Virus record (IMG/VR): IMGVR_UViG_2531839666_000033 | Coordinates: 1 to 29,739 of that record | DNA from: a virus | Lineage: Duplodnaviria; Heunggongvirae; Uroviricota; Caudoviricetes | Direction: 5' to 3' (one strand) | DNA length: 29,739 bases | In this document: positions 861-25,039 of the stretch, one piece after another | How positions within the stretch are numbered: the first letter of the stretch is position 1 | How the letters are laid out: each line of letters opens with the position of its first letter | Program-made: the position numbers and the translations under genes | The notes under the pieces: model-generated | Seen by the model: the letters and a program-made list of their open reading frames with translations, nothing else | The model's database searches: none | Told to the model about the DNA's origin: nothing

Positions 861-944
861 TAAAAAAGGCCGCCAGCAATGAAGGAAAGGGATGAACTTT
901 GTCCACTACATGAATGCTGGCGGCTGGTAAAACGACCATGATGA

Positions 945-967
945 CACCGAAGTCTTCGGTGTTTTTT
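945..967 (+). terminator. Rho-independent terminator (7-bp stem CACCGAA/TTCGGTG, 3-nt loop, T6 tail)
   Basis: Hairpin caccgaagtcttcggtg followed by tttttt, read directly from the sequence. Confidence 0.5.
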
Positions 968-1010
968 CACAAAAATAGTAAATCAATGTCAACTATCACG
1001 GTGGGAAACC

Positions 1011-15406: not shown

Positions 15407-15846
15407 ACTTTGCCCTCAGACTGGCGCGTGAGATGGGGAGACCCGACTGGCGCGCCATGCTTGCCGGGATGACATCCACCGAATATGCCGACTGGCACCG
15501 TTTTTACCGCACGCATTATTTTCAGGATACCCAGCTGGATATGCATTTTTCCGGGCTGACGTACGCTGTACTCAGCCTGTTTTTTTGCGATCCGGATATG
15601 CATCCCTCTGATTTCAGTCTGCTTGTCCCCCGGCATGAGGAAGAGCAGGTGGAGAGGCCGGATGAGGACAAAATGCTGATGCAGAAAGCGGCAGGACTTG
15701 CCGGAGGCGTCCGGTTCGGTGGGGACGGAGGGCGCGATATTTTATCGTCTGCGGATGTGGCGGATGTCATGGTGGATGATGCCGCATTAATGATGGCTTC
15801 AGCGGGGATTCCGGGAGGTGTGAGATATGTCCCAGCCGGTTGGTGA
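14975..15846 (+). CDS. T: tail assembly chaperone G-T fusion, made by programmed -1 ribosomal frameshift at GGGAAAG (15382-15388)
   Basis: The -1 frame after the slip site is open to 15846 (ORF 15433..15846 is its downstream part); the slippery heptamer sits in the same G GGA AAG register as in lambda. Confidence 0.85.
15382..15388 (+). promoter_or_regulatory. -1 programmed ribosomal frameshift slippery heptamer GGGAAAG (G/G-T)
   Basis: Heptamer in G-frame register G GGA AAG, 6 codons before the G stop. Confidence 0.8.
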
Positions 15847-19421: not shown

Positions 19422-20166
19422 ATGACACAGACTGAATCAGCGATTCTGGCGCATGCCCGGCGGTGTGCGCCAGCGGAGTCGTGCGGCTTCGTGATAAGCA
19501 CCCCGGAGGGCGAACGGTACCAGCCCTGCGTGAATATCTCCGCAGAGCCGGAGGCGTATTTTCGTATTGCACCGGAAGACTGGCTGCAGGCAGAGATGCA
19601 GGGGGAGATTGTGGCGCTGGTCCACAGTCATCCCGGTGGTCTGCCCTGGCTGAGCGAGGCGGACCGGCGGCTGCAGATAAAGAGTGCCCTGCCCTGGTGG
19701 CTGGTCTGCCGGGGTGAAATTCACCGGTTCCGCTGTGTGCCGCACCTGACCGGACGGCGCTTTGAACAGGGTGTGACGGACTGTTACACCCTGTTCCGGG
19801 ATGCATACCATCTGGCGGGGATAACGCTGCCGGATTTTGAGCGTGAGGATGACTGGTGGCGCAACGGTCAGAACCTGTACCTGGACAACCTGGCAGTACA
19901 ACGGCTTTTACCGGGTGTCTCCGTCCTGTGCACAGGCGGGCGATATCCTGCTGTGCTGCTTTGGTTCATCGGTGCCGAATCATGCCGCCATTTACTGTGG
20001 CAACGGTGAACTGCTTCACCATATACCTGAACAACTGAGTAAACGGGAGAGGTATTCTGAAAAATGGCAACGACGAACGCATTCTGTCTGGCGTCACCGC
20101 CACTGGTCCGCATCTGCCTTCACGGGGATTTACAACGATTTGGTCGCCGCATCAGCCTGTATGTGA
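19422..20166 (+). pseudogene. K: tail tip assembly protein (lambda gpK-like), frame disrupted by an apparent 1-nt insertion in a T-run (T4 at 19906-19909)
   Basis: N-terminus MTQTESAILAHARRCAPAESCGFV…HSHPGG matches lambda K up to about 19900; the conserved C-terminus (…GDILLCCFGSSVPNHAAIYCGNGELLHHIPEQLSKRERYSEKWQRRTHS…) continues in the +1 frame (ORF 19837..20166). Confidence 0.85.
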
Positions 20167-20744
20167 ACACGGCAGCGGAGGCCATCCGTGCCCTGTCGCT
20201 GCAGGTGCCGGGATTCCGCGGTCAGATGAACGAAGGCTGGTATCAGATACGTATTGCCGGTGAGGATACCGCACCGGAGGCGGTGTACGCCCGTCTTCAC
20301 GAACAACTGGGTGAGGGAGCGGTCATCCACATTGTGCCGCGACTGGCCGGAGCCGGGGGAAATGGTGTTTTTCAGGTGGTGCTGGGGGCAGCAGCCATCG
20401 TGGGCTCTTTCTTCACCGCCGGTGCAACGATGGCGTTGTGGGGCGCAGCCCTGAGTGCCGGAGGGCTGACTGCCACCACGATGCTGTTCTCACTGGGTGC
20501 CAGCATGATACTGGGTGGTGTGGCCCAGATGCTGGCCCCGAAGGCAAAGACGCCGGAGTACAAAAGTACGGATAACGGTAAACAGAACACGTATTTTTCG
20601 TCACTGGACAACATGATTGCCCAGGGTAACCCGATGCCGGTGCCTTACGGTGAAATGCTGGTTGGTTCACGACGGATATCCCAGGACATCAGCACCCGTG
20701 ATGAGGGCGGAGACGGGAAAGTGGTGGTTATCGGACGGGGATGA
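20064..20744 (+). CDS. I: tail tip assembly protein (lambda gpI-like)
   Basis: 226 aa; RICL.GDLQRFGRRI…GAVIHIVPR.AGA…GVFQ.VLGAAAI.GSFFTAGAT…LAPKA.TP…TDNGKQNTYFSSLDNM.AQGN matches lambda I. Confidence 0.92.
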   Translation: MATTNAFCLASPPLVRICLHGDLQRFGRRISLYVNTAAEAIRALSLQVPGFRGQMNEGWYQIRIAGEDTAPEAVYARLHEQLGEGAVIHIVPRLAGAGGNGVFQVVLGAAAIVGSFFTAGATMALWGAALSAGGLTATTMLFSLGASMILGGVAQMLAPKAKTPEYKSTDNGKQNTYFSSLDNMIAQGNPMPVPYGEMLVGSRRISQDISTRDEGGDGKVVVIGRG

Positions 20745-20781
20745 AAATAAAAAAATCCCGCAGAGTTAGCGGAGCTGCGGG
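20745..20781 (-). terminator. Rho-independent terminator oriented for the minus strand (hairpin plus U7AU4 on the minus strand), directly after the I stop
   Basis: Plus-strand sequence aaaataaaaaaat-CCCGCAG-agttagcggag-CTGCGGG; on the minus strand the 7-bp GC stem is followed by TTTTTTTATTTT; no U-tract on the plus strand. Confidence 0.5.
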
Positions 20782-20817
20782 AAGAGATACGAAGATTAAC
20801 TGTAAGGAGTTATTATT

Positions 20818-20886
20818 ATGTCACAGCAAAAAAAAACGGTAACGCAGAGAAATTATAAGCGCCACTGGGATTTTGTGAAAATGTGA
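20818..20886 (+). CDS. putative 22-codon basic peptide ORF with strong RBS inside the I-J insert (may not be translated)
   Basis: AAGGAG at 20804-20809, 8-nt spacer, then ATG; MSQQKKTVTQRNYKRHWDFVKM. Its RBS and start are fully antisense to a predicted minus-strand transcript. Confidence 0.25.
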   Translation: MSQQKKTVTQRNYKRHWDFVKM

Positions 20887-20903
20887 AGAATTTCAGAAAT
20901 TTT
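20881..20903. repeat. copy 1 of a 23-bp perfect direct repeat ATGTGAAGAATTTCAGAAATTTT (near-palindromic core AATTTCAGAAATT)
   Basis: Identical 23-mer at 20881-20903 and 21060-21082, 179 bp apart, inside the I-J insert. Confidence 0.9.
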
Positions 20904-21059
20904 CTGTTGCGGAGCTGAACTAAAAAACGCTCCCGCAATACACCTGGATATTAACGGGAGGAACGAATAGTCACCTTAAGGAGTTGCGATTAATTGCTTT
21001 TATTGACCGCAGGTAATCTACCCATCCGGCAAGGTTTCCTCCACGGGAATTTGCCGGAA

Positions 21060-21082
21060 ATGTGAAGAATTTCAGAAATTTT
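21060..21082. repeat. copy 2 of the 23-bp direct repeat ATGTGAAGAATTTCAGAAATTTT
   Basis: Perfect match to 20881-20903; followed within 15 nt by a plus-strand terminator hairpin. Confidence 0.9.
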
Positions 21083-21095
21083 ATTCCGTCATGAC

Positions 21096-21126
21096 ACAGG
21101 CACCCTCCGGGGTGCCTGTCGTTTTC
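21096..21126 (+). terminator. Rho-independent terminator (10-bp perfect stem ACAGGCACCC/GGGTGCCTGT, UCCG loop, then CGTTTTCT) just upstream of the J RBS
   Basis: Read directly from the sequence; lies 44 nt upstream of the J start codon. Confidence 0.55.
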
Positions 21127-21169
21127 TGGCATAAACAGATTCAGACATCAGACAGGAGAGGGGGACAGA

Positions 21170-24100
21170 GTGGGTAAAGGGGGCGACAAGGGGCACACAC
21201 CGCGTGAGGCGAAGGACAATCTCAAATCCACGCAGATGATGAGCGTGATTGATGCCATTGGTGAGGGACCGGTGGAAGGTCCGGTGAAGGGACTGCAGAG
21301 TATTCTGGTGAACAAAACCCCGCTGACGGACACGGACGGTAATCCCGTGATACACGGTGTGACCGCCGTCTGGCGTGCCGGGGAGCAGGAGCAGACACCG
21401 CCGGAAGGCTTTGAGTCCTCCGGGGCGGAAACCGCACTGGGCGTGGAGGTGACGAAGGCAAAGCCGGTGACGCGCACCATCACGTCAGCGAACATTGACC
21501 GTCTGCGGGTCACCTTCGGGGTACAGTCACTGGTGGAGACCACCTCAAAGGGTGACCGTAATCCCTCTTCTGTCCGCCTGCTGATTCAGCTTGAGCGTAA
21601 CGGGCACTGGGTGACGGAGAAGGATGTCACCATTAACGGCAAGACCACCTCGCAGTATCTGACGTCGGTGATTCTGAATAATCTCCCTGAGCGCCCCTTT
21701 AACATCCGGATGGTCAGGGTGACGGCGGACAGCACCACGGACCAGCTGCAGAACAGAACGCTGTGGTCGTCATACACCGAAATCATCGATGTGAAACAGT
21801 GCTACCCGAACACGGCCATTGTGGGGCTGCAGGTGGATGCGGAGCAGTTTGGTGGCCAGCAGCTGACGGTGAACTACCATATCCGCGGTCGCATCATTCA
21901 GGTGCCGTCAAACTATGACCCGGAAAAACGCACCTACAGCGGTATCTGGGACGGGAGTCTGAAACCGGCATACAGCAATAACCCGGCCTGGTGCCTGTGG
22001 GACATGCTGACCCACCCGCGCTACGGGATGGGAAAACGCCTGGGGGCCGCGGATGTGGACAAGTGGGCACTGTATGCCATCGGGCAGTACTGCGACCAGA
22101 CGGTCCCGGATGGTTTCGGGGGCACAGAGCCGCGGATGACCTTTAATGCGTACCTGTCACAGCAGCGTAAGGTGTGGGATGTCCTGGGGGATTTCTGCTC
22201 GGCGATGCGCTGTATGCCGGTATGGAACGGCCAGACGCTGACGTTCGTTCAGGACCGCCCGTCGGATGTGGTGTGGCCGTACACCAACAGCGATGTGGTG
22301 GTGGATGATAACGGCGTGGGGTTCCGCTACAGCTTCAGTGCCCTGAAGGACCGGCACACGGCGGTGGAGGTGAATTACACCGACCCGCAGAACGGCTGGC
22401 AGACTTCCACGGAACTGGTGGAAGACCCGGACGCCATCCTGCGCTACGGGCGCAATCTGCTGAAGATGGATGCGTTTGGCTGTACCAGCCGCGGTCAGGC
22501 CCACCGTGCCGGACTGTGGGTGATAAAGACAGAACTGCTGGAAACGCAGACGGTGGATTTCACGCTCGGGTCACAGGGGCTGCGGCACACGCCCGGTGAC
22601 ATTATTGAAATCTGTGATAACGACTACGCAGGGACCCTGACCGGCGGACGCATCCTGTCCATCGATGCCGCCAGCCGTACCCTGACGCTGGACCGTGAGG
22701 TGACACTGCCGGAAGCAGGGACATCGACGGTGAACCTGATTAACGGCAGCGGTAAGCCGGTGCGCGTGGACATCACTGCACACCCCGCCCCGGACCGGAT
22801 ACAGGTCAGTACCCTGCCTGATGGTGTGGAGACATACGGGGTGTGGGGACTCTCCCTGCCGTCACTGCGCCGTCGCCTGTTCCGCTGTGTCTCCATCCGG
22901 GAAAACACGGACGGCACCTTTGCCATCACGGCAGTGCAGCACGTACCGGAAAAAGAAGCCATCGTGGATAACGGGGCCCGCTTTGAGCCGCTCTCCGGCT
23001 CACTGAACAGCGTCATCCCGCCGGCAGTGCAGCACCTCACGGTGGAGGTGAGTGCCTCAGACGGCCAGTATCTGGCGCTGGCGAAATGGGACACGCCGCG
23101 GGTGGTGAAGGGCGTGCGCTTCAGTCTGCGCCTGACCAGTGGCAGTGGTGAAAACAGCCGCCTGGTGACCACCGCCATCACTGCCGACACGGAGCACCGT
23201 TTCAGTGGCCTGCCTCTGGGGGAATACACCCTGACGGTCAGGGCGATAAACAGCTACGGCCAGCAGGGCGAACCTGCCACCACCGCGTTCCGGATTAATG
23301 CGCCTGCAGCACCGGCCAGCATTGAGCTGACGCCGGGGTATTATCAGATAACAGCAGTACCGGTGCTGGCGGTGTATGACCCGACGGTACAGTCTGAATT
23401 CTGGTTCTCAGAAAAACGCATCACGGACATGGCACAGGTGGAAACCTTTGCCCGTTATCTGGGGACAGGCAGCCAGTGGAGTGTCTCCGGCCCGCACATT
23501 AAGCCGGGGAAGGATTTCTGGTTTTATGTGCGCAGCGTCAATCTGGTGGGGAAATCTGCGTTTGTGGAAGCCAGTGGCCGGGCGAGCAATGATGCGGAAG
23601 GGTATCTGGACTTTTTCAGAGGAGAAATCGGGAAGACACATCTGGCACAGGGGATGTGGGAGCTGATTGATAACAGCCAGCTTGATGATGAGATGGCGGA
23701 GATGAAGACCACCATCACAGAAACCCGCAATGAAATCACACAGACGGTCAGTAAAACCCTGGAAGACCAGAGTGCCACCATACAGCAGATACAGCGGGTG
23801 CAGACAGACACAAATAACGACCTGGCTGCGCTGTACATGCTGAAGGTACAGAAAACGAAAACGGCATTCCGTATGTTGCCGGTATAGGTGCGGGGATTGA
23901 GGATGCTGATGGCCAGCCCCTGAGCAATATTCTGCTGCAGGCGGACCGTATCGCGATGATTAACCCGGAGAACGGCAACACCACGCCGCTGTTTGTGGCG
24001 CAGGGGAATCAGCTGTTCATGAACGATGTGTTCCTGAAGCGGTTGTTTGCAGTGAGCATCACCTCGTCCGGCAATCCCCCGACGTTCTCCCTGACGCCGG

Positions 24101-24636
24101 AGGGCAGGCTGACGGCCCGCAATGCGGACATCAGCGGACATATCAGTGCGAACTCGGGCACGCTCAATAATGTCGTGATAGCGGAGAACTGTACGATAAA
24201 TGGCACGCTGAAAGCGGAGAACATTATTGGTGATCTTGTGAAATGTGCAGGGGTGGCTTTTCCGGTGGATGGTAGTTACCTTGCGAACGGTACACGAACG
24301 CTGACGGTGTATGACGATCACAGCTTTGACCGGCAGATTATAATCCCGCCGATAATCTATGTCGGGTCAAAACAGGAATCCCGTACCAGTAATGACATCT
24401 GGACAGAGTGCTTCCTGCATGTTGATCAGAACGGACGCCGGATTTATTCCGGCAGGTCAGTGACAGAGCCGGGAATTTTCAGCGGGATCATCGATATGCC
24501 AGCCGGTCATGGTCATATCACCCTGAGTTTTACCGTAAGTTCACGACGTCAGAACGGGAGTTTTGGCAGTTCACGTATCAGTAACCTTCAGGCGATAGTG
24601 GTGAAGAAAAACAGCGCGGGGATCAGCATCCGCTGA
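21170..24636 (+). pseudogene. J: tail tip / host-specificity protein (lambda gpJ-like), frame disrupted by a 1-nt deletion in an A-run (A4 at 23858-23861)
   Basis: ORF 21170..23887 matches lambda J over about 890 aa ([20 protein letters not shown]…, [35 protein letters not shown]); the conserved C-terminus (…[25 protein letters not shown]…NADISG…) continues in ORF 23956..24636; one extra A in acgaaaaCgg joins the frames. Confidence 0.9.
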
Positions 24637-25039
24637 ACATCGCGCCCCGGGATTGCCGGAAGGAGACAAAAACCGTACAGTATGCGCGGGTGCCTTTGGC
24701 TGATGGCCGGAGGGAACACCTGAAGGCCGGAAAGACGAAGGCCCCGGACAAACATTCATGTTTAACCCGAGGCCTGACTTTCGATCTTCAGCAAATTGAA
24801 GGTTAGCGCCTCTCCGTAAAAGGAGCAAGCGTTTATGTCGCAAAACCGTTAAAAACCACCGTGATTTGTATCACGGTAGTGCTCATTATCTGGATCACCC
24901 ACAGTTCACTGTGCGAGTTCCGGTTCCGGATAGCGGGCGCGGAGATTGCGGCGTTCTTACAGTGTAAGCAGTAAGAAACCGTGGCGGGGGAGAATATCCC
25001 CCGCCGACCGGTTGCTGAGGGTGGTCAGCCGGATGGCAC

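Follow-up and report, generated by a model that had tools for sequence, protein, structure and literature searches.

The late region of the lambdoid prophage analysed here (IMG/VR record IMGVR_UViG_2531839666_000033, positions 1 to 29,739; this whole 29,739-nucleotide stretch is referred to as the window) carries a 425-bp non-coding spacer between the tail genes I and J. The minus strand of this spacer, read from 20845 to 20749, very probably encodes a homologue of PasB (pathogenicity-associated sRNA B), a small RNA (sRNA) of enteropathogenic Escherichia coli (EPEC), so that the I-J spacer would be a small-RNA moron. What we observed here is homology, anatomy, and conservation; expression and Hfq dependence are known for the EPEC homologue only.

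The spacer is bounded by the gene for tail assembly protein I (20064-20744, plus strand; Pfam PF06805 Lambda_tail_I, E = 3e-16), whose TGA stop codon lies at 20742-20744, and by the gene for tail tip protein J (21170-24636, plus strand), which starts with GTG at 21170, carries the Pfam domains of the tip attachment protein J and is frameshifted in the window. In lambda the I-J gap measures 60 bp, in agreement with an earlier note on this DNA, which had described a 425-bp non-coding insert at a gene pair that is adjacent in lambda. All the spacer features listed in that note were found in the sequence where it had placed them. It had also raised the question of whether the insert is a mobile moron. 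Relative to lambda the insert is indeed moron-like, being extra DNA (425 versus 60 bp) with its own predicted promoter and terminator. In BLAST searches, most Shiga toxin (Stx) phages and other lambdoid phages showed a spacer of ~240 bp that matches both ends of the query, and the full 425-bp form, which holds two modules, was present in 33 complete E. coli genomes as well as in IMG/VR contigs. Since it recurs in this manner, the spacer is not an artefact.

Module 1 and PasB of EPEC

PasB is one of five prophage sRNAs detected in EPEC E2348/69 by the ligation and sequencing of interacting RNAs (RIL-seq), and it was confirmed by Northern blot (Pearl Mizrahi et al, 2021; PMC8550237). This RNA of 83 nt is encoded on the minus strand (NC_011601, 1466343..1466261) between E2348C_1436 and E2348C_1437, depends on Hfq, and ranks 15th by number of RIL-seq interactions (PMC8550237). 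We found that these two genes are I and J, respectively, and that PasB ends 5 nt past the stop codon of I, in a spacer of 240 bp. In EPEC Δhfq, the log2 fold changes of PasB are -6.8 and -2.4, and in the EPEC lysogen its baseMean values are 482 and 1082, versus 5 and 15 for I and J.

The window holds a gene of the same kind at the same place (module 1; 20749-20845, minus strand): it lies in a lambdoid prophage, between I and J, and runs opposite to the tail genes. A covariance model (R1) built from 27 PasB-like transcripts, with every window-type sequence left out, scored module 1 at 95.8 bits (E = 6e-16), compared with 95.1 bits for PasB itself. Over 97-98 nt, module 1 and the PasB of E2348/69 are 78.6% identical, and the window aligns to the EPEC PasB spacer over its whole length except for a 179-bp insertion. 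The published Northern probe for PasB matches 20754-20776 at 20 of its 23 positions, where zero such matches are expected by chance, and the three mismatches all fall within the hairpin loop. The predicted fold of module 1 has an energy of -20.3 kcal/mol (z = -3.7). Its RNA would measure ~97 nt with a start set by the TATAAT promoter; a 5' end after the U-run, as published for PasB, would make it ~82 nt. IMG/VR and E. coli genomes yielded 77 unique modules, each of which folds as an RNA of ~90-108 nt whose 3' hairpin is followed by a tail of 6-8 U residues. The window and EPEC loci thus share the position, the orientation, the end just after the I stop codon, the terminator, the promoter layout, and an upstream dyad; they differ at several positions of the candidate seed and of the 5' part, and the window adds a second module in tandem.

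The 3' end of module 1 is an intrinsic terminator (20749-20782, minus strand), for which the scan returned a stem (20773-20757) and a T-run after it. In full, the hairpin extends over 20756-20782 and the U7 tail over 20755-20749 (A7 on the plus strand), so the minus-strand terminator that the earlier note had set against the I stop codon is borne out. Across the family, the terminator helix is 97.9% paired, with compensatory changes in three of its eight pairs. A covariance model of the terminator only took the place of RNAalifold on whole modules including the promoter, which was uninformative. A Rho-independent 3' terminator with a U-tract, that is, an Hfq-binding module, is what membership of the PasB family calls for. 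At the core of the insert is a separate RNA, set on the minus strand between a promoter and a terminator of its own, such as the earlier note had predicted; as the homologue PasB has been detected experimentally, the predicted RNA is real in a homologue, and there it is a trans-acting Hfq sRNA. By homology with EPEC PasB, the module 1 RNA would likewise be stabilised by Hfq, and its own sigma70 promoter and Rho-independent terminator would allow expression from a silent prophage, independently of the late operon.

Other known sRNAs gave no comparable correspondence. The Rfam search of the spacer returned nothing at the gathering threshold nor at E <= 10, PasB being absent from Rfam 15, and the PasA and PasC probes had no match in the window. 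AgvB and AsxR of enterohaemorrhagic E. coli (Tree et al, 2014; PMC4104026) resemble the module RNA in being Hfq-bound, in occupying insertion-tolerant sites of lambdoid prophages, and in combining a conserved 3' part with variable 5' and seed parts. They measure 51-60 nt, though, are located near the stx/lysis region, downstream of PR' (PMC4104026), and have no sequence relationship to the module RNA. We therefore rejected this identity, since those sRNAs sit at the PR' moron site; the corresponding Rfam families, RF02702 and RF02703, found no match in the window. Apart from the spacer, the PasB model gave a weak match at 862-984 (minus strand; 21.1 bits, E = 0.056), where a GC hairpin and a U-run lie downstream of a TTGACA-like box; this is probably an unrelated terminator.

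Candidate seed, small reading frame, and antisense alternatives

The candidate seed of module 1 reads 5'-AACUCCUUACAGUUAAUCUUCGU-3' (20790-20812, minus strand). Outside the terminator, the best-conserved block of the family is GUUAAUCUUC, just 5' of it, and the PasB seed has likewise been placed just upstream of the terminator in a recent preprint (Zhu, Shabalina and Storz, 2026; 10.64898/2026.05.13.724894). We infer both the seed and its targets. The stretch is predicted to be largely single-stranded in PasB and in many variants; in module 1 of the window, the minimum free energy fold pairs AACUC with GUUAA in the seed region, and accessibility is less clear there. Most likely the RNA would act in trans through the candidate seed AACUCCUU...GUUAAUCUUC, in which an anti-Shine-Dalgarno sequence, CUCCUU, would probably pair with the ribosome-binding regions of mRNAs.

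The complement of the seed holds the plus-strand AAGGAG at 20804-20809. This hexamer, a spacing of 8 nt, and an ATG at 20818 opening a frame of 22 codons were the elements that the earlier note had read as a small gene with a strong Shine-Dalgarno sequence, and all of them are present. We nevertheless judge the open reading frame (ORF) (MSQQKKTVTQRNYKRHWDFVKM; 20818-20886, plus strand, with the TGA at 20884-20886) to be spurious. The 22-codon frame requires a run of nine A residues at 20828-20836. The otherwise identical spacer of strain GE3 has eight, as has every top match among 5,426 complete genomes, and with A8 the frame reads MSQQKKR followed by a stop codon; the 22-codon form was found only in the window. 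Of the 77 unique modules, 19 have an ATG at the equivalent position, and the other 58, validated PasB included, lack one. Where it exists, the frame runs for 6, 7, 12, 14, 21, or 22 codons, depending on the length of the homopolymer and on a single stop codon (TAG versus AAG). The Shine-Dalgarno sequence is best explained by CUCCUU in the candidate seed region, of which it is the complement, and most likely the ORF and its ribosome-binding site mirror the sRNA of the opposite strand, as a reverse-complement shadow that would not constitute a gene.

These data also bear on the type I toxin-antitoxin or antisense switch suggested earlier, in which the 22-residue peptide would be functional and the minus-strand RNA would repress its translation. 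Such a layout would account for the fact that the RNA covers both the Shine-Dalgarno sequence and the start codon of the ORF, and the 19 variants with an ATG do encode related peptides (MS(R/Q)QK...). Nonetheless, with the 22-codon frame private to the window and the ATG mostly absent in relatives, a type I system is not supported. The conserved small toxin ORF, usually hydrophobic, is lacking: the peptide is basic and hydrophilic, and a Pfam search with it gave no match. So is a promoter for a toxin mRNA, as the promoter scan found no plus-strand sigma70-like promoter in 20400-21500. Moreover, in the EPEC lysogen the I and J transcripts are almost absent while PasB is abundant. In hok/sok, too, a small ORF is overlapped by an antisense RNA, but hok encodes a conserved hydrophobic toxin from its own mRNA with a fold-back structure, and a genuine hok/sok-like locus 3.5 kb away looks quite different from the spacer. 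Taken together, we regard the toxin-antitoxin interpretation as exceedingly improbable.

A cis-antisense regulator of the late operon deserves somewhat more weight, while still being unlikely. Here the sRNA would direct RNase III or RNase E cleavage of the late mRNA, or modulate J, after induction. It is perfectly complementary to the I-J mRNA junction, its position is fixed at I-J in every prophage examined, and PasB was drawn as overlapping the 3' untranslated region (UTR) of the upstream gene, '(> <) >' (Pearl Mizrahi et al; PMC8550237). Complementarity, however, is automatic for any antisense insert and hence no functional evidence. RIL-seq links PasB to other transcripts in 37 interactions, and its tables hold no entry for I or J. 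Spacers in which sodC occupies the junction (see below) retain the RNA body, but in another promoter context. An effect in cis on the late I-J mRNA may coexist with the trans action that we favour for the PasB homologue.

Promoters and the upstream dyad

The sigma70 promoter of module 1 (P1; 20852-20879, minus strand) combines a -35 box TTCACA (20879-20874) with a -10 box TATAAT (20857-20852) across a 16-bp spacer and matches the consensus at 11 of 12 positions. The earlier note had identified the same TATAAT, which stands, and had paired it with TTTTCA at a spacing of 18 bp; that combination reaches 10 of 12 matches and is outscored by TTCACA. The promoter scan found two sites where 0.5 were expected from shuffles. 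At the P1 hexamer, A2 and T6 are kept in 70 of the 77 unique modules. Sixteen nucleotides downstream lies a second -10-like hexamer, P2 (TACCGT, 20836-20841, minus strand), which follows the pattern TAnnnT, and its T1, A2, and T6 are found in all 77. P2 keeps a fixed distance from the dyad, and the start it predicts, near 20827-20829, falls within 1 nt of the published 5' end of PasB.

Immediately upstream of the -35 box of each module is a dyad of the general form AAATGTGA-N6-TCAGA-AnTTTT. In front of module 1 (dyad 1, 20879-20903) it reads AAATGTGA-AGAATT-TCAGA-AATTTT and corresponds to the first copy of a 23-bp direct repeat; the second copy (dyad 2, 21058-21082), recognised by the repeat and by motif comparison, lies upstream of module 2. 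In 33 unique promoter regions, which were chosen through protein I and therefore independently of the dyad motif, TGTGAA, TCAGA, and TTTT are invariant, whereas most of the interior N6 and nearly every column of the -35 box and spacer vary. The CRP consensus is TGTGA-N6-TCACA. Dyad 1 matches this core at nine of ten positions, which makes it a candidate CRP-like site, and the dyad is flanked by AAA and TTT. The position of its centre depends on the start: about -44.5 from the one predicted by TATAAT, and about -60.5 from the one predicted by TAnnnT, the latter being near the class I position (activating positions include -41.5 and -61.5). PasB is higher in overnight static LB medium than in Dulbecco's modified Eagle medium (DMEM); the CRP-repressed Spot 42 shows the opposite, being ~5-fold higher in DMEM. 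The dyad before each module most likely binds a dimeric regulator, for which CRP is the best candidate.

A Cra/FruR-like reading of TGAA-N4-TTCA was dropped, as the central CG is missing. A scan of genome contigs with the dyad pattern returned mostly noise from AT-rich genomes, the only real match being in E. albertii.

Module 2, tandem arrays, and the I-J junction

The perfect 23-bp direct repeat reported earlier was recovered as the core of a longer 42-nt repeat (20862-20903 and 21041-21082, 86% identical). Both AAGGAG boxes, including the second one that had been described in the earlier note, belong to a further repeat of 35 nt (20784-20818 and 20958-20992, 71% identical). As both repeats are spaced by 174-179 bp, the insert is a diverged tandem duplication. 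The second unit, module 2 (20924-21024, minus strand), scored 33.3 bits with R1 (E = 3e-4) and is 55.9% identical to PasB, as a distant paralogue would be. It carries a different candidate seed, GGUGACUAUUCGU, and ends in its own terminator-like hairpin (20922-20960, minus strand), recognised by sequence and fold, in which CUCCCG..CGGGAG (20960-20930) is followed by CG and then by U6 (20927-20922). The tandem arrangement of the two modules would account for the direct repeats. At the P1 -10 position module 2 reads AACCTT, where other modules have TATAAT, AATAAT, or TATCAT, and it keeps the P2 hexamer as TAGATT (21020-21015). Given the decayed main -10 box, module 2 would be either weakly expressed or a relic. 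A search of the phage collection with module 2 gave no match.

Several observations weigh against our reading of the spacer. As mentioned above, several positions of the candidate seed region of module 1 depart from validated PasB. When the two candidate seeds were scanned for duplexes with the 31 translation-initiation regions in the window, no outlier target emerged; the J site reached -17.7 and -23.1 kcal/mol, which places it in the top ~5-10% of the background, with several other sites equal or beyond. The published 83-nt PasB begins 15 nt downstream of the start that TATAAT predicts, and this species may be either a primary transcript or a processed form. Measured from the TATAAT start, the dyad is centred at about -44.5, which is not the canonical class II position of CRP. 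Finally, module 2 is the lowest-scoring family member under the covariance model and lacks a consensus promoter, none having reached the scan threshold.

The degenerate -10 box of module 2, together with the variety of inserts that the junction takes (sodC, a 340-bp variant, and one to four modules), could also be understood if the spacer were an inert mosaic scar, that is, recombination debris at an insert-tolerant junction whose signals arose by chance or are decayed remnants. We consider this very unlikely: the homologue PasB is experimentally expressed, both hairpins of the spacer show compensatory changes, and the dyad half-sites and TAnnnT are invariant across modules that are otherwise ~55-80% identical.

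In support of a family of genes at this site, full-length matches to the covariance model number one, two, three, or four per I-J spacer, corresponding to spacer lengths of ~240, 425, 715, and 910 bp. Three modules were found in the ~715-bp spacers of loci L005, L212, and L283, and four in the ~910-bp spacers of L004, L263, L282, and L284; most modules of these longer arrays keep intact -10 boxes. Strains of Shiga toxin-producing E. coli with three or four modules include O104:H21 CFSAN002236 and RM10042. When I-J junctions were selected through protein I, 58 of the 77 had one module, two had two, one had three, one had four, and 15 had sodC instead. We estimate that 2-4 tandem modules are present in ~100 of 5,426 complete E. 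coli genomes, an estimate that was checked on five loci. The linkers in three- and four-module arrays (L004 1230-1300; L005 1375-1440) end in GGGGATAA and an A-run, thereby repeating the last codons and the stop codon of I. This suggests that the arrays grew via unequal crossing-over that took in the 3' end of I.

The preprint by Zhu, Shabalina and Storz (2026; 10.64898/2026.05.13.724894) reports PasB variants that differ by a few nucleotides, usually with one per genome and with copies separated by 28 kb or more. As for the copies of PasA and PasD, it speaks against a tandem duplication. It contains no promoter analysis and does not describe diverged modules or arrays of 2-4 modules. Since only near-identical and well-separated PasB copies are given there, tandem PasB arrays appear to be undescribed so far. 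According to general knowledge and to the discussion in that preprint, OmrA/OmrB of E. coli and PrrF1/PrrF2 of Pseudomonas are likewise sRNA genes in head-to-tail order, separately equipped with promoter and terminator, which have kept their 3' parts and diverged in their pairing regions. They differ in being chromosomal core genes with known regulators (OmpR and Fur, respectively), whereas PasB modules are prophage cargo in one to four copies, of which the single-copy PasB is the one with expression data.

We tentatively propose, as a possibility that we rate below even chances, that the I-J junction is an expandable cassette site, holding one to four PasB-family genes that have diversified seeds and separate promoters and terminators, all under one conserved CRP-like dyad, and that module 2 is active from TAGATT. 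Here we infer the regulator, the targets, whether module 2 is active, and what the plus-strand hairpin described next does.

Before J, the scan found the plus-strand terminator that had been noted earlier (21096-21126; z = -3.9), a terminator-like hairpin with a 10-bp stem at 21096-21119 followed by CGTTTTC. It is 98.3% paired across the family, and one pair has changed from CG to UA with compensation in nine sequences. The 60-bp I-J gap of lambda (L286 767-790, lambda 15466-15489) contains a positionally equivalent plus-strand hairpin, ACCGCC TGCG GGCGGT followed by TTTTG. Because the lambda gap holds this equivalent, the plus-strand terminator is probably ancestral to the I-J junction, and the sRNA modules would have been inserted between the hairpin and I. 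Its role would be to stop transcription that has not been antiterminated ahead of J. A plus-strand sRNA ending at the 21096 terminator was considered and rejected, as no promoter was found for it and the RIL-seq data hold no entry for the 3' UTR of I. The heptamer TCAGACA, just upstream of the ribosome-binding site of J, occurs in two copies in the window (21141-21154) and in up to ~4-5 copies in other prophages (L235, L104, L096).

Phage morons such as sodC of lambdoid prophages are, like the insert studied here, extra DNA with its own promoter and terminator between late genes, and sodC is found at the same junction; the cargo here differs in being a non-coding RNA gene oriented against the late operon. 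In the 15 junctions with sodC, the spacer measures 848-851 bp and carries a minus-strand gene for a Cu/Zn superoxide dismutase (PF00080), as in L228 (1864-2714) and also in L218, L223, L246, L253, and L264. The insertion lies exactly at the PasB start region, such that the promoter and dyad are lost and a full-length PasB-like body (71-78 bits) is kept downstream. By its placement, this body may be made as a product of the sodC 3' UTR. Another variant, of 340-343 bp (L278 1863-2205; also L244, L250, L256, L257, L260, L272, and L279), keeps one PasB module and the dyad, and in it the usual right part is replaced by ~200 bp of other sequence with a bidirectional terminator-like hairpin, AAAACCCCGGTATC..GATACCGGGGTTT.

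Beyond the spacer, an A-run near 23857 has lost 1 nt as compared with the intact 1155-aa gpJ of strain GE3, and J is thereby split into two ORFs (21170-23887 and 23956-24636). This deletion and the extra A at 20828 suggest either a defective prophage or homopolymer sequencing errors. Downstream of J lies the hok/sok-like type I system, with a match to Rfam sok (RF01794) of 63.2 bits at 24688-24837 and a Hok-like ORF at 24861-24974, both on the plus strand; a Hok/Gef family protein is annotated at the equivalent place in GE3.

The PasB sRNA family itself is known, and our findings are incremental, adding as modest new details a tandem paralogue, the arrays, and an invariant dyad. They illustrate that a small ORF with a perfect Shine-Dalgarno sequence can be the mere mirror of an sRNA that contains an anti-Shine-Dalgarno sequence on the other strand. 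The PasB family appears to be broader than BLAST with the 83-nt query had implied and to include several candidate-seed types, while the invariant TGTGA-N6-TCAGA dyad provides a concrete candidate regulatory element for PasB. The I-J junction emerges as a hotspot for cargo, either sRNA or sodC. If the cassette proposal is true, a prophage could use this site to deliver to its host a set of sRNAs responsive to carbon status.

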